A stretch of DNA of 64,000 nt from Escherichia coli. Lineage in GTDB: Bacteria > Pseudomonadota > Gammaproteobacteria > Enterobacterales > Enterobacteriaceae. The DNA lies in NCBI RefSeq assembly GCF_044324875.1, contig NZ_CP172185.1. One strand, given 5' to 3'. A model generated the notes under the pieces. It searched no databases. It was not told the origin of the DNA and saw only the letters and a list, made by a program, of their open reading frames with translations. Below, one piece after another: positions 5,112 through 14,287 of this stretch; position 1 is the first letter of the stretch, and the number at the start of each line of letters is the position of its first letter. Position numbers and translations under genes: made by a program.

Positions 5112-5526
5112 TATTCAGCAGGTTATGGAGCGATGGGGGGCATGGGTGGCGAATAACCACGAAGACGTGGAATGGTCATCCATTGCCGCCGGATTCAAGG
5201 GGCTGATACCGTCAAAAGTAAAATCGCGACCGCAGTGTTCCGATGATGACGCGATGATTATCTGTGGTTGTATGGCTCAACTGAACCGGAACAACAGTGA
5301 TTTGCATGAATTGCTGGTTGATTACTACGTGTGTGGGATGACGCTGATGAAGTTAGCAAGGAAACATGGATGTTCTGATACGCATATTGGAAAGCGTTTG
5401 CAAAAAGCTGAAGGAGTGGTTGATGGCATGTTGATGATGCTGGGAGTAAGACTTGAGATGGATCGGTATGTGAGCGTAAATTATTCGATGTGCCGTAAAA
5501 CTCCGTCCTTCAGGGCAGGGATATAA
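5101..5526 (+). CDS. Late-gene antiterminator Q-like protein
   Basis: About 141 aa, directly upstream of the tRNA/lysis region; N-terminus [15 protein letters not shown] resembles the short Q type of Stx-family lambdoid phages as recalled; Cys-rich. Confidence 0.6.
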
Positions 5527-5536
5527 GGCGTACAGG

Positions 5537-5566
5537 ATAAATAAAAGAACGGGCGCAAAGCGCCCA
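5537..5566 (-). terminator. Rho-independent terminator for the opposite-strand porin gene
   Basis: Hairpin GGGCGCAAAGCGCCC followed on the minus strand by a T-rich run. Confidence 0.55.
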
Positions 5567-5709
5567 AGTATAAACAACAAAAAACGGTAATAAATAACAG
5601 AAAGTCCGTTGGAAAAGTTAAGTACTGTCCAACGTTTTGCAGTGGCATGAGGGCACCACTTTATATGTCAGAAAAGTTTCACTCTCCCGACATATTCTTA
5701 CAAAACAAA

Positions 5710-6813
5710 TCAGAACTGATAAGTCAAACCAACAGCGACAATATCATCGGTTAATACATCAGTTCTTTCAGTGAATTGATTCTTATCAAGCAGGTTGATT
5801 TTATAGTCTACGTATGTAGACATATTTTTGTTGAAGTAATAAGCAGCACCGACTTCAATGAATTTTTCAATGTATCCGTCATTATGTTTTTCAGGGATAC
5901 CAGTTTTGGTGGAAAGGTCTTTGGCTTTCGACTGGATATAAGCAAGAGACGGGCGCAAACCAAAGTCGAACTGATACTGTGCAACTACAGCGAAATCTTC
6001 AGTTTTATTGGCTACACCGTTGTAGCCGCCGGGCGAGTACTTGATTGCGCGGGTATTACGTGTTTCACCATAAGTGGCTGCCAGGTACAGATTATTCGCG
6101 TCATATTTTACGCTGGTAGCCCACTGTTCAGCTTTTTTACCTTTACCAAAAGTCGTCGCTTCCTGTGCATTGGTGCGATCGGCTGCACCATATGCAGCTA
6201 CAAAACCAAAGCCTTCATATTCATAACTGACAGAGCCGCCAACACCGTCGCCGTTTGAAGTGCCTGCATTGTCACGCTCATTTTTACCCAGATACTGAAC
6301 CGCAAAGTTCAGTCCATCAACCAGACCGAAGAAGTCGGTATTACGGTAAGTGGCAACACCACCTACACGACCCACGAAGAAGTTATCCCCGTTAACAGAA
6401 CCAGGCCCAAATTCAGGGAGGACATCAGTATAGCTTAATGCGTCATACACCACGCCATAGTTACGACCATAATCCAGAGAGCCAATATTTTCTAGTTTCA
6501 GGCCAGCGTATGCCAGACGGGTTTTGTCTCCTGCAGAGCCATCTTTTTCTGCCTTGTTGCCTTTGAATTCATATTCCCATTGACCAAAACCAGTTAACTG
6601 ATTGTTGATTTGGGTTTCACCTTTGAATCCAAGACGGGCATAAGTTCCATCACCTTCTTCTTTGGCGTTAGAAGAAAAGTAATGTTTACCCACTACTTTG
6701 CCATATAAATCCAGTTTATTACTGTTTTTATTATATATTTCTGCTGCATTTGCAGACATTGCCAGAAATACTGATGCTGCTACAGCAGAAAGTGCCACTG
6801 TTAAATTTTTCAT
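5710..6813 (-). CDS. Outer membrane porin (OmpC/NmpC family) moron
   Basis: Signal peptide [29 protein letters not shown], porin-type beta-strand composition, C-terminal aromatic residue; same position and orientation as nmpC in DLP12-type prophages. Confidence 0.85.
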
Positions 6814-7411
6814 TTTTTATCCTCTGGTGGGAGTTAATTGGACGACAAAATGCTATCAGGATGAAAATTTAATTTCTGTGTATAATGTATACAAGGAAAA
6901 TTAAGGAGTCCGATTCTTTATATGTGACCACCATCACAAAATAAGAAGTCATGCAAGCTAATAAATAGATGGCTATCTTTCACTCAAAAAATTAAGATCA
7001 ATCTTTTTTATTAGAAGTGCTAAATATATTTAATTATTTGGGGTTGTGAGTTATTTATATAACCTTAATAAAGACATTACTTTTGAAGAAAAATACGTGC
7101 ATAGAAGAATGCATAATCTTTAATTACATCTTGCCAAGCGTCGCAACAATCCAGAGATTGTATGTGGGGTGAATCATGCAGCATGCAGGGTATGAACAAA
7201 CACTTTACGATCGTAAAAGTATGCATATCATGGTAAGAGTGGTTCCTACGCCACACAACTTAAACCCGCAGCCAGGCGGTTTTTTACATCGAAAATCTGC
7301 ACCGGACATTAAGCTCTTTGGCGGACCAGATAAGAGGTGCGCTTAGTTGGGTTTGTCGGGCTTTCTCTGAGATTTGCGGTATTAATCCCGTAACGTTATT
7401 ATGCTGCTCGA

Positions 7412-8910: not shown

Positions 8911-9444
8911 ATGAACGCAAAAATCAGATACGGCCTGTCGGCTGCCGTTCTGGCGCTGATTGGTGCTGGCGCATCTGCTCCTCAGATACTTGATCAGTTT
9001 CTGGACGAAAAAGAGGGTAACCACACAACGGCATACCGCGATGGGTCCGGCATCTGGACCATCTGTCGGGGTGCCACGATGGTGGATGGAAAACCCGTTT
9101 TTCCCGGAATGAAGCTGTCGAAGGAAAAATGCGACCAGGTTAACGCTATTGAACGTGATAAGGCACTGGCATGGGTGGAGCGCAATATTAAAGTACCTCT
9201 GACCGAACCACAGAAAGCGGGTATTGCGTCATTCTGTCCCTATAACATTGGCCCCGGTAAGTGTTTCCCGTCGACGTTTTATAAGCGGCTTAATGCCGGT
9301 GATCGAAAAGGCGCCTGCGAGGCGATTCGCTGGTGGATAAAGGATGGTGGGCGTGACTGCCGTATCCGTTCAAATAACTGCTATGGACAGGTTATTCGTC
9401 GTGACCAGGAAAGCGCATTAGCCTGTTGGGGGATAGATCAGTGA
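8911..9444 (+). CDS. Endolysin, lysozyme with N-terminal signal-anchor-release (SAR) domain
   Basis: 177 aa; N-terminal hydrophobic [16 protein letters not shown]-x8-D-x5-T catalytic spacing ([16 protein letters not shown]). Confidence 0.85.
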
Positions 9445-9908
9445 GCAGAGTCGCCGCGATTATTTATGCTCTGGTTATCTGCATCATCGTCTGCCTGTCG
9501 TTGGCGGTCAATCATTACCGTGATAACGCCATAGCCTACAAAGAACAACGTGATAAAAAAGTCAGTGAGCTGAAGCAGGCGACCGCCACCATCGCTGACA
9601 TGCAGCAGCGTCAGCGTGATGTTGCTGCGCTCGATGCAAAATACACGAAGGAGTTAGCTGATGCGAAAGCTGAAAATGATGCTCTTCGGCGCAAGCTTGA
9701 TAATGGTGGCAGGGTGCTCGTCAAAGGAAAATGCCCTGTGCCATCCTCAGCCGAAACCTCCAGCGCCTCCGGCATGGGCAATGATGCCACCGTCGAACTC
9801 TCTCCAGTTGCTGGACGAAACGTTCTCGGTATCCGGGACGGAATTATCCGCGACCAGACAGCACTGAGAACGCTTCAGGAATACATCAGGACGCAATGCC
9901 TTCGATGA
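9441..9908 (+). CDS. Rz-like inner-membrane spanin (i-spanin)
   Basis: N-terminal TM segment [19 protein letters not shown] then coiled-coil-like region; probable GTG start overlapping endolysin stop. Confidence 0.65.
9661..9867 (+). CDS. Rz1-like outer-membrane lipoprotein spanin (o-spanin), embedded in Rz in +1 frame
   Basis: Lipobox MVAGCSS, proline-rich [11 protein letters not shown]; fully nested within Rz. Confidence 0.6.
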
Positions 9909-10082
9909 TAGCGATAATTTTACTCATCATCCTTCACATCTGGCTCTGTAGACAGGGTGGTGATCACTTCTGGAGTGAATCCAGATTAAACATCTCATTG
10001 CTGATGCTTGATATTGAGCATCTGGCGCGCGGTAAGGGGCTGCGTTGAGATAAGAGCCAGTCATTAAAAATACCTGGATTTA

Positions 10083-10108
10083 GCCTCGCATTCGCGGGGC
10101 TTTTTTAT
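10083..10108 (+). terminator. Rho-independent terminator downstream of Rz
   Basis: GCCTCGCATTCGCGGGGC hairpin followed by TTTTTTATT. Confidence 0.5.
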
Positions 10109-10540
10109 TGCCATTACAAAAGCCACTCCCTACAGAGTGGCTTTGATAATGGCTTATACCCTACACGGGATAACTTAACTGATATCCCTTTTAACGGATA
10201 AAGGTATTCAAGCCTGACACATCATGCGCTGTATCGTCGCTGTATTCCCGCATTAACCATGACCGTAGCCCGACGGGGAACTCCTTCTGCGCGAGTGTGC
10301 GGGAATAATCAAAAACGATGCACACCGGGTTTTTACCGCGCTAATGATTCGCGGGTTTGTCCCTCATGCTCGCCAGTCCGGTGCGATGGTGGAAGAAACC
10401 GGAAGCTGTATTACAGAAAGTGCTACTACTGTATCCTGATGCGATGTATGTAATGTGAGTCAGATAATGGCACAGGATGTGGTGATGTGGCAGTCTGGAA
10501 CACAGGATATATTGTCAGAATAAGACCCGTAGGAATAAAA

Positions 10541-10867
10541 ATGAAAAGACGCCTTTCACTACTTTTTCTGTTATCTGCCCTGGCAGTGGGATGCTCGCAG
10601 CAAAAAGCTGATGAGCCCCGGCAATTAGTGACGGTGTATCCACGATATCCGGAATATGCTGCAGCAAATTATATCAAGGGGCTGGTTGAGGTTAAGTTCG
10701 ATATTGGTGCTGACGGGACTGTGACACGGATCGTTTTTCTCCGCTCAGAGCCTCATAATTTGTTTCGTGATGAAGTGGTGAAGGCCATGGCGAAATGGAG
10801 ATTTGAAAAGAATAGTCCCCGTCAGGGAGTGAAGAGACAATTTATCTTTACGCCATCACGTCCCTGA
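10541..10867 (+). CDS. Lipoprotein with TonB C-terminal-like domain (moron)
   Basis: Signal/lipobox MKRRLSLLFLLSALAVGC; C-terminal region GLVEVKFDIGADGTVTRIVFLRSEPHNLFRDEVVKAMAKWRFE matches the TonB C-terminal pattern (compare E. coli TonB GQVKVKFDVTPDGRVDNVQIL...FEREVKNAMRRWRYE). Confidence 0.6.
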   Translation: MKRRLSLLFLLSALAVGCSQQKADEPRQLVTVYPRYPEYAAANYIKGLVEVKFDIGADGTVTRIVFLRSEPHNLFRDEVVKAMAKWRFEKNSPRQGVKRQFIFTPSRP

Positions 10868-11231
10868 TGCTTCCAGGTAGAGAGGGGCTGGAAGCAGGAG
10901 AAAAATGAAAGAGCCAGCGGTTATATTTTTGTCATGGCTGACGAGAAATGATGGAAGAAGGCGTTGTATGCCACACAACGCCTCACTGTTCATTTCTTCT
11001 TTTTCTCTGGTGTAACCCGATGAATAAGAGTTGCACTGGTTTCCGATGAGATGGCGATATGCTCGGGCAAAGTATGCTGGCAGTTTTCCAACTGGTCAAA
11101 AATACCTGCTCTCGTCTGTTGCAATGCCTGCAGCATGCGGCGGCAATGCGCCTTTGCTTTTGCTAACCATCTTTCCTTACTCTATCAGTCGCTGCGTGAA
11201 CTCATCATGGAATACCAGGTAAATGCGGATG

Positions 11232-11483
11232 TTATCGGTTTTGGCTACGCAGCATAGTACAAAACGGACAGGTGCATCCCGGAATGGGGGAGGCGTCACA
11301 TGTCCCTGTGATGGTTGTTCCGGGTAATGCACTGTGTGGGGCATAAAAATGTCCGATAATTTTACTTTCTACCGCAGTTAGTTGATTCGTTGGTCCTGGT
11401 AGCACATTGGGCGAGGGTTTAAATGCCAGGCAACTGAAGGATGATGTTGCAAGGGAGATAGCGAGAATATTTCTGATTTTCAT
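11232..11483 (-). CDS. Small secreted Cys-rich protein (83 aa), opposite strand
   Basis: Signal peptide MKIRNILAISLATSSFSCLA; convergent with upstream lipoprotein gene; function unknown. Confidence 0.4.
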   Translation of the reverse strand: MKIRNILAISLATSSFSCLAFKPSPNVLPGPTNQLTAVESKIIGHFYAPHSALPGTTITGTCDASPIPGCTCPFCTMLRSQNR

Positions 11484-11634
11484 TTGATGATGCCTCTGTG
11501 TGAAATGACGGTAAACGACGCACTTGTGCCGGCACATAATAGCAAGCATCAGAATAGATCAGATTCGATTCTTGCTGTAAGTGATAATTATTCTCGTTTT
11601 TTTCGGGTCCTTTCCGGCGATCCAACAGGTTACG

Positions 11635-11646
11635 GGGCGTCGACCT
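11635..11646 (+). other. cosN-like cohesive-end site
   Basis: ACGGGGCGTCGACCTCGCG differs at one base from recalled lambda cos ACGGGGCGGCGACCTCGCG; about 190 bp upstream of Nu1. Confidence 0.5.
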
Positions 11647-11838
11647 CGCGCAAAACAACTCCTTATGAAATTTTTACGGGAAATTCAGATCCGTTCTTCT
11701 TTCTTGTAAGTCATTGTGTATATTGAATTTTATTTGTTCTGAGAAAGGATCTGATAAGGCTTCGTTTCGCCTGAAAAGGCAGTTTTAAGATCCTTTCTTA
11801 AAAAAACGGGTCATTTTCTTGCTGGAGGGGATGCTGGT

Positions 11839-12387
11839 GTGAGGGTTAACAAGAAAAAGCTGGCTGAGATTTTTGATGTTGATGTGCGGACTATATCCAC
11901 CTGGCAAAATCAGGGGCTGCCGCTGATATCAGGCGGCGGGAAAGGGAATGAAGCGATTTTTGATACGGGAAAAGCGATTGAGTGGTTCGCTCAGCGTGAG
12001 GCCGACATTGAAAATGAAAAACTTCGTAAGGAAGTCGACGATATGCGCGTGGCTGCTGAGTCGGATCTGCAGCCCGGTACGATTGATTACGAACGCTACC
12101 GTCTCACAAAAGCACAGGCAGATGCGCAGGAACTGAAAAATGCTCGTGAGGAAGGGCTGGTTCTTGAAACGGAATTATTTACCTACATTTTTCAGCGAGT
12201 TGCGCAGAATATATCCGGGATCCTTGTTCGTGTTCCGCAGACACTGCAGCGTAAATACCCTGATATATCACCAGCACATCTTGATGCTGTGAAAACTGAA
12301 ATCGCGAAAGCATCCGATGTGGCTTCTGAATCAGGTGAGAATGTGTGCAGGTGGATTGATGATTTCAGACGAGCTGAGGGCGGCTAA
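11839..12387 (+). CDS. nu1: Terminase small subunit (lambda Nu1-like)
   Basis: [41 protein letters not shown] closely parallels lambda Nu1 N-terminus; GTG start. Confidence 0.85.
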
Positions 12388-14287
12388 CTCTACAGGAGCG
12401 ATAACGACTGGTCTCCTTGCGCTAAAAATTCCTGTACCCCTGACGACAGTTCAGTGGGCAGATCAACATTATTACCTGCCGAAAGAGTCGTCTTACACAC
12501 CAGGGCGGTGGGAAACATTGCCGTTTCAGGTTGCCATAATGAACAGTATGGGTAATGACCTGATCCGCACTGTTAATCTGATTAAATCTGCCCGTGTTGG
12601 TTATACAAAAATGCTGTTGGGAGTGGAGGCTTATTTTATTGAGCATAAATCCCGCAACAGTCTGCTTTTTCAGCCCACGGACTCAGCTGCTGAAGATTTT
12701 ATGAAATCTCATGTTGAGCCAACGATAAGGGATGTTCCTGCATTGCTGGAGCTGGCTCCATGGTTCGGAAGAAAACACCGCGATAATACGCTCACCCTGA
12801 AGCGTTTTTCCTCCGGTGTGGGGTTCTGGTGTCTGGGTGGTGCGGCAGCAAAAAATTACCGTGAAAAATCCGTGGATGTGGTCTGTTATGACGAGCTTTC
12901 CTCGTTCGAACCGGATGTTGAAAAAGAGGGCTCGCCAACCCTGCTGGGGGATAAGCGTATTGAGGGCTCTGTATGGCCAAAATCCATTCGCGGCTCGACG
13001 CCTAAAATCAAAGGCTCCTGCCAGATCGAAAAAGCCGCTAACGAGTCGGCACATTTCATGCGTTTTTATGTGCCCTGCCCGCACTGTGGGGAGGAGCAGT
13101 ATCTGAAATTTGGTGATGATGCCTCGCCTTTCGGTCTTAAGTGGGAGAAGGACAGCCCCGAAAGCGTTTTCTACCTTTGTGAGCATCATGGCTGTGTGAT
13201 CCATCAGTCTGAGCTTGACCAGAGTAACGGGCGGTGGATCTGTGAAAACACGGGGATGTGGACCCGTGACGGCCTGATGTTTTTCAGCGCCCGGGGTGAT
13301 GAAATTCCGCCGCCGCGCTCCATCACTTTCCATATCTGGACGGCGTACAGTCCGTTCACCACCTGGGTACAGATAGTCTATGACTGGCTGGATGCACTGA
13401 AAGATCCCAACGGCCTGAAAACCTTTGTGAACACCACGCTGGGCGAGACCTGGGAAGAGGCCGTGGGCGAAAAACTCGATCACCAGGTACTGATGGATAA
13501 GGTTGTGCGTTACACGGCGGCGGTGCCTGCCCGGGTGGTTTATCTGACGGCGGGCATTGACTCGCAGCGAAACCGTTTTGAGATGTATGTCTGGGGATGG
13601 GCTCCGGGAGAGGAAGCCTTTCTGGTGGATAAAATCATTATTATGGGGCGTCCCGATGAGGAAGAGACGCTGTTACGTGTGGATGCAGCGATCAACAAAA
13701 AATACTGCCATGCAGACGGAACCGAAATGACCATTTCCCGTGTCTGCTGGGACATCGGGGGGATCGATGGAGAAATCGTTTATCAGAGGTCAAAAAAACA
13801 CGGTGTTTTCCGGGTGCTGCCGGTAAAAGGCGCATCTGTCTATGGCAAGCCGGTGATCACCATGCCAAAAACCCGCAATCAGCGGGGCGTGTATCTGTGT
13901 GAAGTGGGCACGGACACCGCAAAAGAAATTCTCTATGCCCGTATGAAAGCCGCTCCCACGCCTGCGGATGAATCCACGTCGTATGCCATCCGTTTTCCTG
14001 ATGATCCGGAGATTTTTTCGCAGACAGAGGCGCAGCAACTGGTCGCGGAAGAGCTTGTGGAGAAGTGGGAAAAAGGAAAGATGCGTCTGCTGTGGGATAA
14101 CAAAAAGCGGCGTAACGAAGCGCTGGACTGCCTGGTGTATGCCTACGCGGCATTACGTGTGTCCGTGCAACGCTGGCAGCTTGATCTGGCTGTACTGGCA
14201 AAATCCCGGGAAGAAGAGACGACCCGGCCAACCCTTAAAGAACTGGCAGCGAAGCTGTCCGGAGGAGTGAATGGTTACAGTCGCTGA
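12359..14287 (+). CDS. A: Terminase large subunit (lambda gpA-like)
   Basis: Collinear with lambda A ([39 protein letters not shown]); start chosen by alignment (ORF track begins 12317). Confidence 0.9.

Follow-up and report, generated by a model that had tools for sequence, protein, structure and literature searches.

A temperate-phage gene for a predicted lipoprotein with a lone TonB C-terminal domain

The locus among the late genes of a lambdoid prophage

We analysed a stretch of 64,000 nucleotides of the Escherichia coli contig NZ_CP172185.1 (RefSeq assembly GCF_044324875.1), referred to below as the window. The late region of a lambdoid prophage in this window carries, between the lysis genes and the terminase genes, a plus-strand coding sequence for a 108-aa lipoprotein with a TonB C-terminal (TonB_C) domain (10541..10867, stop included), as indicated by the reading frame, profile matches and an alignment to PDB structures. 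The lysis genes, all on the plus strand, comprise an endolysin (8911-9444), Rz1 (9661-9867, embedded in Rz) and Rz (9426-9908), which is homologous to Rz of phage 21 and JLK-2012. Downstream lie the plus-strand genes for the terminase small subunit (terS, 11839-12387) and large subunit (12317-14287), named from the RefSeq annotation of a 99.6%-identical locus. Between Rz and the TonB_C gene lies a terminator-like hairpin followed by a T-run (10082..10101, + strand), detected by pattern scan alone. Pattern scans revealed no promoter-like site on the plus strand of 9800-11900 and no canonical terminator after the TonB_C stop codon, and a search by eye for a Fur box in 10440-10540 gave nothing convincing.

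Positions 10225-11634 match the right end of the phage 21 genome, as far as cos, with 96.5% identity. The bor region of lambda and phage 21 is the Rz-to-cos interval that houses the TonB_C gene; in phage 21, bor is the immediate upstream neighbour of the gene and is encoded on the opposite strand. This window has no bor. Lambda Bor (Iss-like), a lipoprotein moron of this interval, is not homologous to the TonB_C lipoprotein. An earlier note on this DNA had placed the gene where lambdoid phages carry exclusion lipoproteins such as bor or cor. The position stands, as the interval from Rz to terS is the bor region, but the comparison does not: Bor is known as a serum-resistance lipoprotein, not an exclusion protein, and cor is presumably not carried at this position of lambdoid phages. 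Upstream of the lysis region, the same prophage also encodes a 367-aa porin resembling OmpF, OmpC and NmpC (5710-6813, minus strand).

A block of about 180 nt (approximately 10225-10410) that precedes the gene is conserved at about 90% identity in phages with TonB_C alleles that have diverged to a dS of about 1.5 and are saturated at synonymous sites. Within it lies a non-coding element (10231..10403, + strand) for which RNA hairpins are predicted at positions 10231-10321 and 10377-10403. In these hairpins 97% of cells are paired, and compensatory changes affect seven pairs against 1.1 expected; for the middle hairpin, covariation was judged by eye. The element occurs in 432 phage records, including lambdoid phages, Stx1 and Stx2 phages and a Salmonella phage, and partly in lambda. 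Most of these records lack the TonB_C gene, and the element usually lies directly before the terminase genes. Comparison of 9800-11900 with Rfam returned sub-threshold chance matches only. We considered a 64-aa open reading frame at 10259-10453 as a gene and rejected it, as its frame is not maintained from one phage to another and 17 nt inside it are deleted in phage 21. We regard the element as a candidate for a structured RNA within the late transcript of lambdoid phages.

Signal peptide and TonB C-terminal domain

The reading frame starts with ATG at 10541 and ends with TGA at 10865-10867. A Shine-Dalgarno sequence, AGGA, can be read 6 nt 5' of the ATG (10531..10534, + strand), and GGAAT together with the ATG is invariant when the two main allele types, A and B (described below), are compared. 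A longer frame beginning with GTG at 10487 was rejected because that start is not conserved in type-B alleles, which carry a 13-nt insertion at this point.

The protein begins with MKRRLSLLFLLSALAVGC followed by SQQKADE. A PROSITE-style pattern, {DERK}(6)-[LIVMFWSTAG](2)-[LIVMFYSTAGCQ]-[AGS]-C, identifies a signal peptide (10541..10594, + strand) with the lipobox L-A-V-G-C, in which a positive n-region and a hydrophobic h-region precede the invariant Cys of the lipobox. Lipidation is predicted at Cys18 (10592-10594), which would be the first residue of a mature protein of 91 aa, with Ser at position +2. The same pattern is matched by 15 of the 22 small relatives checked, and the lipobox is kept despite a diverged h-region, as VMGC in type B, LMGC in Salmonella and LLGC in a Klebsiella phage. 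Throughout the relatives with 32-96% identity the lipobox is conserved, and none has Asp at +2. Under the Lol sorting rule, the +2 residue governs whether a lipoprotein is destined for the inner or the outer membrane. Because this residue is Ser and not Asp, sorting to the outer membrane is predicted, and we infer that the 108-aa lipoprotein is probably anchored there.

A tether of just seven residues (S19-E25; 10595..10615, + strand), modeled with pLDDT of 50-80, connects Cys18 to the TonB_C domain (P26-P108; 10616..10864, + strand). Pfam, the PDB alignment, AlphaFold2 (AF2) and Foldseek together assign this domain to residues 153-235 of E. coli TonB; the last four residues of TonB, past position 235, are absent, and the confident part of the alignment stops at TonB 230. 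Specifically, Pfam PF03544 matches residues 33-102 with E=3.2e-13, and NCBIfam TIGR01352 scores 48.6 bits against a cut-off of 27.1. A phmmer search of the PDB retrieved chains of the E. coli TonB C-terminal domain (E of about 2e-14), with residues 22-103 aligning without gaps to TonB 149-230 at about 40% identity. The AF2 model, built from an alignment of 27 sequences, has pLDDT of at least 96 across the domain, and its best Foldseek matches are 1u07, 2gsk_B and 2grx_C (target-normalised TM 0.90-0.92, rmsd 1.0-1.3 Å). The predicted fold is that seen in TonB's C-terminal domain, a three-stranded sheet on two helices. The phage lipoprotein is homologous to the domain known from the structures 1U07 and 1XX3 and from the complexes with BtuB (2GSK) and FhuA (2GRX), at an rmsd of about 1 Å.

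The residues that characterise the TonB_C family are present. P161, Y163 and P164 of TonB, including the YP motif, correspond to P34, Y36 and P37, and all positions of the aromatic core are conserved, with F180, F202, W213, Y215 and F230 of TonB aligned to F53, F75, W86, F88 and F103. The beta3 strand is formed by residues 94-103. Across 27 relatives, P26, P34, Y36, G59, P71, F75 and W86 are invariant, and P37 is nearly so. On the other hand, Q160, R158 and R166 of TonB, which we take to be tied genetically or structurally to receptor contacts, are replaced by Y33, T31 and Y39. The family also conserves residues of its own that differ from TonB, namely Y39, N43 and the motif S69-E70-P71.

The similarity to TonB is confined to this domain. 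Models for full-length TonB (NCBIfam PRK10819 among these equivalogs) give 46-67 bits, against cut-offs of 265-448. The seven residues that separate Cys18 from the domain contain no proline-rich, periplasm-spanning spacer, and the N-terminus carries a cleavable lipoprotein signal peptide in place of the transmembrane helix that links TonB to ExbB/ExbD in the inner membrane. The earlier note had described a lipobox signal peptide followed by a TonB C-terminal-like domain only, with neither spacer nor N-terminal anchor, and had proposed profile and structure searches for the fold; its observation is confirmed in every structural detail. Scans with Pfam, NCBIfam and PHROG found TonB_C-type families only, and no homology to the phage lipoproteins Llp or Cor.

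Alleles, relatives and selection

The protein is already annotated in public records, as a "TonB C-terminal domain protein" in phage 21 and as a "TonB fragment" in phage Perceval, and it is also found in ev017. A search of a literature collection of 8 million full texts identified no functional study of this protein or of any relative, and the genome announcement of phage 21 does not discuss the gene. The earlier note's remark that no characterised example was known therefore holds for function, but the gene itself was known as an annotation.

Two allele types can be distinguished in E. coli phages. Type A (94-100% amino acid identity to the window protein) includes phage 21, ev017, Perceval and several ECOR-derived phages, and type B (about 70% identity) includes Stx1a-converting phages, JLK-2012 and Lys8385Vzw. 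Between the two types dN is 0.18 and dS about 1.5, a dN/dS of about 0.12, and the gene is under strong purifying selection. The signal peptide diverges between type A and type B, while its lipobox is kept.

The gene is common. At least 22% of complete E. coli genomes (1,220 of 5,426) carry it, when carriage is defined as the presence of at least 80% of window positions 10300-11000, and the exact protein occurs on about 999 contigs of a public collection. In IMG/VR a relative is encoded on 171 contigs. Among the best 80 of these 171 loci, the 108-codon reading frame is intact in all 80, and Rz or endolysin homologues lie upstream on the same strand in 76. In phages with unrelated backbones, too, relatives are found in this slot between the lysis genes and the terminase: a Salmonella prophage (44% identity), the Klebsiella phage ST13-OXA48phi12.4 (41%) and a Rahnella prophage (about 32%). 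All three retain the lipobox.

Expression data are available for one close homolog. LF82_160, the copy of the gene in Perceval, is 96% identical to the window protein, and in lysogens of strain LF82 it is transcribed 8-fold above the prophage background, alongside other envelope morons, the NmpC porin and Sit (PMC9928086). This gives outside support to the label of phage moron that the earlier note had applied, and our verdict is that the TonB_C gene is real and probably an ordinary-looking phage moron.

Chromosomes, too, harbour small relatives that have a lipobox or signal peptide (Gibbsiella, Erwinia/Pantoea and Klebsiella michiganensis), and one is on a plasmid. Among the distant chromosomal relatives checked, none has a gene for a TonB-dependent transporter, exbBD or iron genes beside it. 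The plasmid relative (37% identity, with a lipobox), on the plasmid-like contig L012 at 5348-5737, adjoins ParM/StbA partition genes and lies upstream of KAP NTPase and QatB-type defence genes. On the chromosome of Klebsiella michiganensis/grimontii, between der and yfgJ/xseA, a 125-aa TonB_C protein with 41% identity to the window protein (locus L101, 6001-6378) is immediately followed by a gene for a 130-aa lipoprotein (6437-6829; lipobox LASSC) with a TolA C-terminal domain. In this tandem pair each of the two envelope energy transducers is represented by its C-terminal domain alone, which suggests a broader class of proteins with such a composition.

Interpretation and further observations

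We consider that the gene is best explained as encoding a tethered, dominant-negative mimic of TonB that lowers TonB-dependent import, and we give this reading a probability of roughly 45%. The tethered domain would be held at the periplasmic face of TonB-dependent transporters and would dock on their Ton boxes by beta-strand augmentation, the mode used by TonB itself. Lacking both a membrane anchor at the ExbB/ExbD motor and a spacer that spans the periplasm, the lipoprotein could not transmit force, and it would block TonB coupling by competition, in a dominant-negative manner. Alternatively, it may act by forming non-productive heterodimers with TonB. The block would reduce the TonB-dependent entry of phages of the T1/phi80 type, group B colicins and microcins, at the price of some loss of siderophore and vitamin B12 uptake. 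The gene would be expressed as a moron in the lysogen and, because it is located in the late operon, would also be transcribed late.

The retained docking elements, the purifying selection, a modeled Ton-box strand and the precedent of engineered TonB fragments make a decoy plausible, with Ton-box binding and any phenotype of the lipoprotein remaining putative. To model the strand, we appended residues 1-20 of FhuA to the mature protein by way of a GGS linker of 24 residues. In this AF2 prediction, residues 8-12 of FhuA (TITVT, the Ton box) form a beta strand with a block mean pLDDT of about 80 and the linker falls below 50, in the best of five models from a single run that had no negative control and with a program that has seen TonB complexes. 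This outcome is weakly suggestive of beta augmentation, with beta3 as the putative partner strand. Together, these points give partial support to the interpretation in the earlier note that a periplasmic TonB mimic could compete for the TonB boxes of outer-membrane receptors.

Howard, Herrmann, Stratilo and Braun are said to have found in 2001 that periplasmic TonB fragments also inhibited infection by phi80 and killing by colicin M. According to the citation of that work in PMC9841981, overexpression of a periplasmic TonB domain inhibits iron import by the TonB-dependent transporters of E. coli (Howard et al. 2001, J Bacteriol 183:5885). As far as that account describes them, the engineered fragments are likewise exported periplasmic or C-terminal parts of TonB that lack the anchor, but they are laboratory-made, soluble, overexpressed and identical to TonB, whereas the phage protein is natural, diverged and predicted to be lipid-anchored in the outer membrane. 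A second precedent comes from phage T5 (bioRxiv 10.64898/2026.03.26.714494): its lipoprotein Llp, located in the inner leaflet of the outer membrane, acts from the periplasm to silence FhuA. Llp and the lambdoid Cor are also small phage lipoproteins, and by acting on FhuA from the periplasmic inner leaflet they block phages, colicin M and ferrichrome. They are, however, specific for FhuA and unrelated to the TonB_C protein in sequence and fold. Llp remodels the plug and loops of FhuA without mimicking TonB, whereas the TonB_C protein would target the Ton box, which is common to all such transporters.

Several observations count against a decoy. The receptor-contact positions Q160, R158 and R166 differ from TonB, as judged by alignment. 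Distant small relatives sit in ordinary chromosomal settings without Ton-related neighbours. The pattern scan revealed no plus-strand promoter-like site upstream, and no defence-system model of PADLOC matches the protein or three of its relatives. Moreover, a constitutive block of TonB should be costly to the host; given that the gene is present in at least 22% of complete E. coli genomes, any inhibition is probably weak or partial, regulated or selective. Exclusion of superinfecting phages of the carrier's own kind is disfavoured for phage 21, which carries the gene, because its receptor is LamB (PMC11336670).

Of the other explanations, an envelope or virulence lipoprotein survives best, and we regard it as unlikely. 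The TonB_C fold could serve as a generic binder, for example of peptidoglycan or abundant outer-membrane proteins, and change the lysogen's envelope much as Bor/Iss or Lom do, with no action on TonB-dependent import. Such a role would fit the adjoining bor gene of phage 21, the co-expression with the envelope morons NmpC and Sit in lysogens, the NmpC/OmpF-like porin of the prophage studied here, the loss of R158, Q160 and R166, and the chromosomal relatives that lack Ton-linked neighbours. The residues that shape the docking site for the Ton box are nevertheless the most conserved of the family, the nearest relatives in sequence and structure are enterobacterial TonB proteins themselves, and nothing points to another ligand.

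A selective modulator is rather less probable still. The lipoprotein would in this case act on a single transporter or a small number of them, on their signalling domains, or on TonB/ExbD, for instance to alter one receptor used by competing phages or to tune iron signalling, with little global effect. The high prevalence of the gene argues against a costly global block, the family conserves the residues Y39, N43 and S69-E70-P71, in which it differs from TonB, and receptor-specific lipoproteins have precedents in Llp and Cor. Against this, recognition of the Ton box by beta augmentation is largely mediated by the backbone and hence generic, and the sequence names no partner.

An outer-membrane lipoprotein that assists lysis or phage release at the end of the lytic cycle is improbable. 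The gene lies on the strand of the late operon right after the lysis cassette, in 76 of the best 80 IMG/VR loci and in the Salmonella, Klebsiella and Rahnella phages, and its family, PHROG 1267, is labelled 'Rz-like spanin'. That label looks like a transfer by position, because PHROG 6954, which comprises non-conserved reading frames called over the neighbouring non-coding element, carries the same one; both appear to be annotation errors spread by Pharokka-type pipelines. Rz1, the o-spanin, is an outer-membrane lipoprotein, as the TonB_C protein is predicted to be, and is also encoded beside the lysis genes, but Rz1 is short, rich in proline and paired with or embedded in the i-spanin gene, whereas the TonB_C protein has a globular fold. 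Since the window has a complete Rz/Rz1 pair of its own, the TonB_C gene is not the spanin, and we rejected that identity. Transcription of the Perceval copy in lysogens also speaks against a role restricted to lysis.

Finally, a dead remnant of a captured tonB gene, as hinted by historical labels ('TonB fragment', 'partial tonB-like') and by frameshifted C-terminal variants in some genomes, is strongly disfavoured and very improbable, given the dN/dS of about 0.12, a lipoprotein signal peptide that was acquired and is conserved at 32-96% identity, the intact frame in all of the best 80 IMG/VR loci, and the same position kept in unrelated phage backbones. The gene is not a decaying fragment, and the labels "fragment", "partial" and "Rz-like spanin" are misleading.

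If the lipoprotein is a TonB decoy, a gene of the classical phage 21 and of more than one fifth of sequenced E. coli would encode a general inhibitor of TonB coupling. We tentatively extend this to a wider proposal, that a natural dominant-negative form of TonB is carried by temperate phages of Enterobacterales and might give lysogens broad protection against TonB-dependent phages, group B colicins and microcins. As an exclusion system it would be the first to act on the energy-coupling step in place of a single receptor and, with the TonB_C/TolA_C pair of Klebsiella, would define a class of 'energy-transducer decoy' lipoproteins. A decoy would bear on phage host range and on the design of therapeutic cocktails, as many therapeutic phages use TonB-dependent receptors. 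It would also bear on susceptibility to colicins, microcins and siderophore-antibiotic conjugates (albomycin, cefiderocol-type uptake), and on iron acquisition in pathogens with Stx1 and other lambdoid prophages. A natural, evolved ligand of the Ton box could in addition serve as a tool for studies of TonB-transporter interaction. Should the lipoprotein have another role, it would still be a very common and conserved prophage lipoprotein that has been mislabelled as a 'fragment' and a 'spanin'.

Two further features of the window deserve mention. A J-like tail-tip protein of 1,180 aa (31313-34855, plus strand) ends, unlike lambda J, in long, near-perfect, coiled-coil-like repeats. Downstream of the tail-fibre genes, three consecutive minus-strand reading frames of 512, 115 and 133 aa (38287-40620) resemble an IS66-family element in size and order, a comparison based on the sizes of the reading frames.
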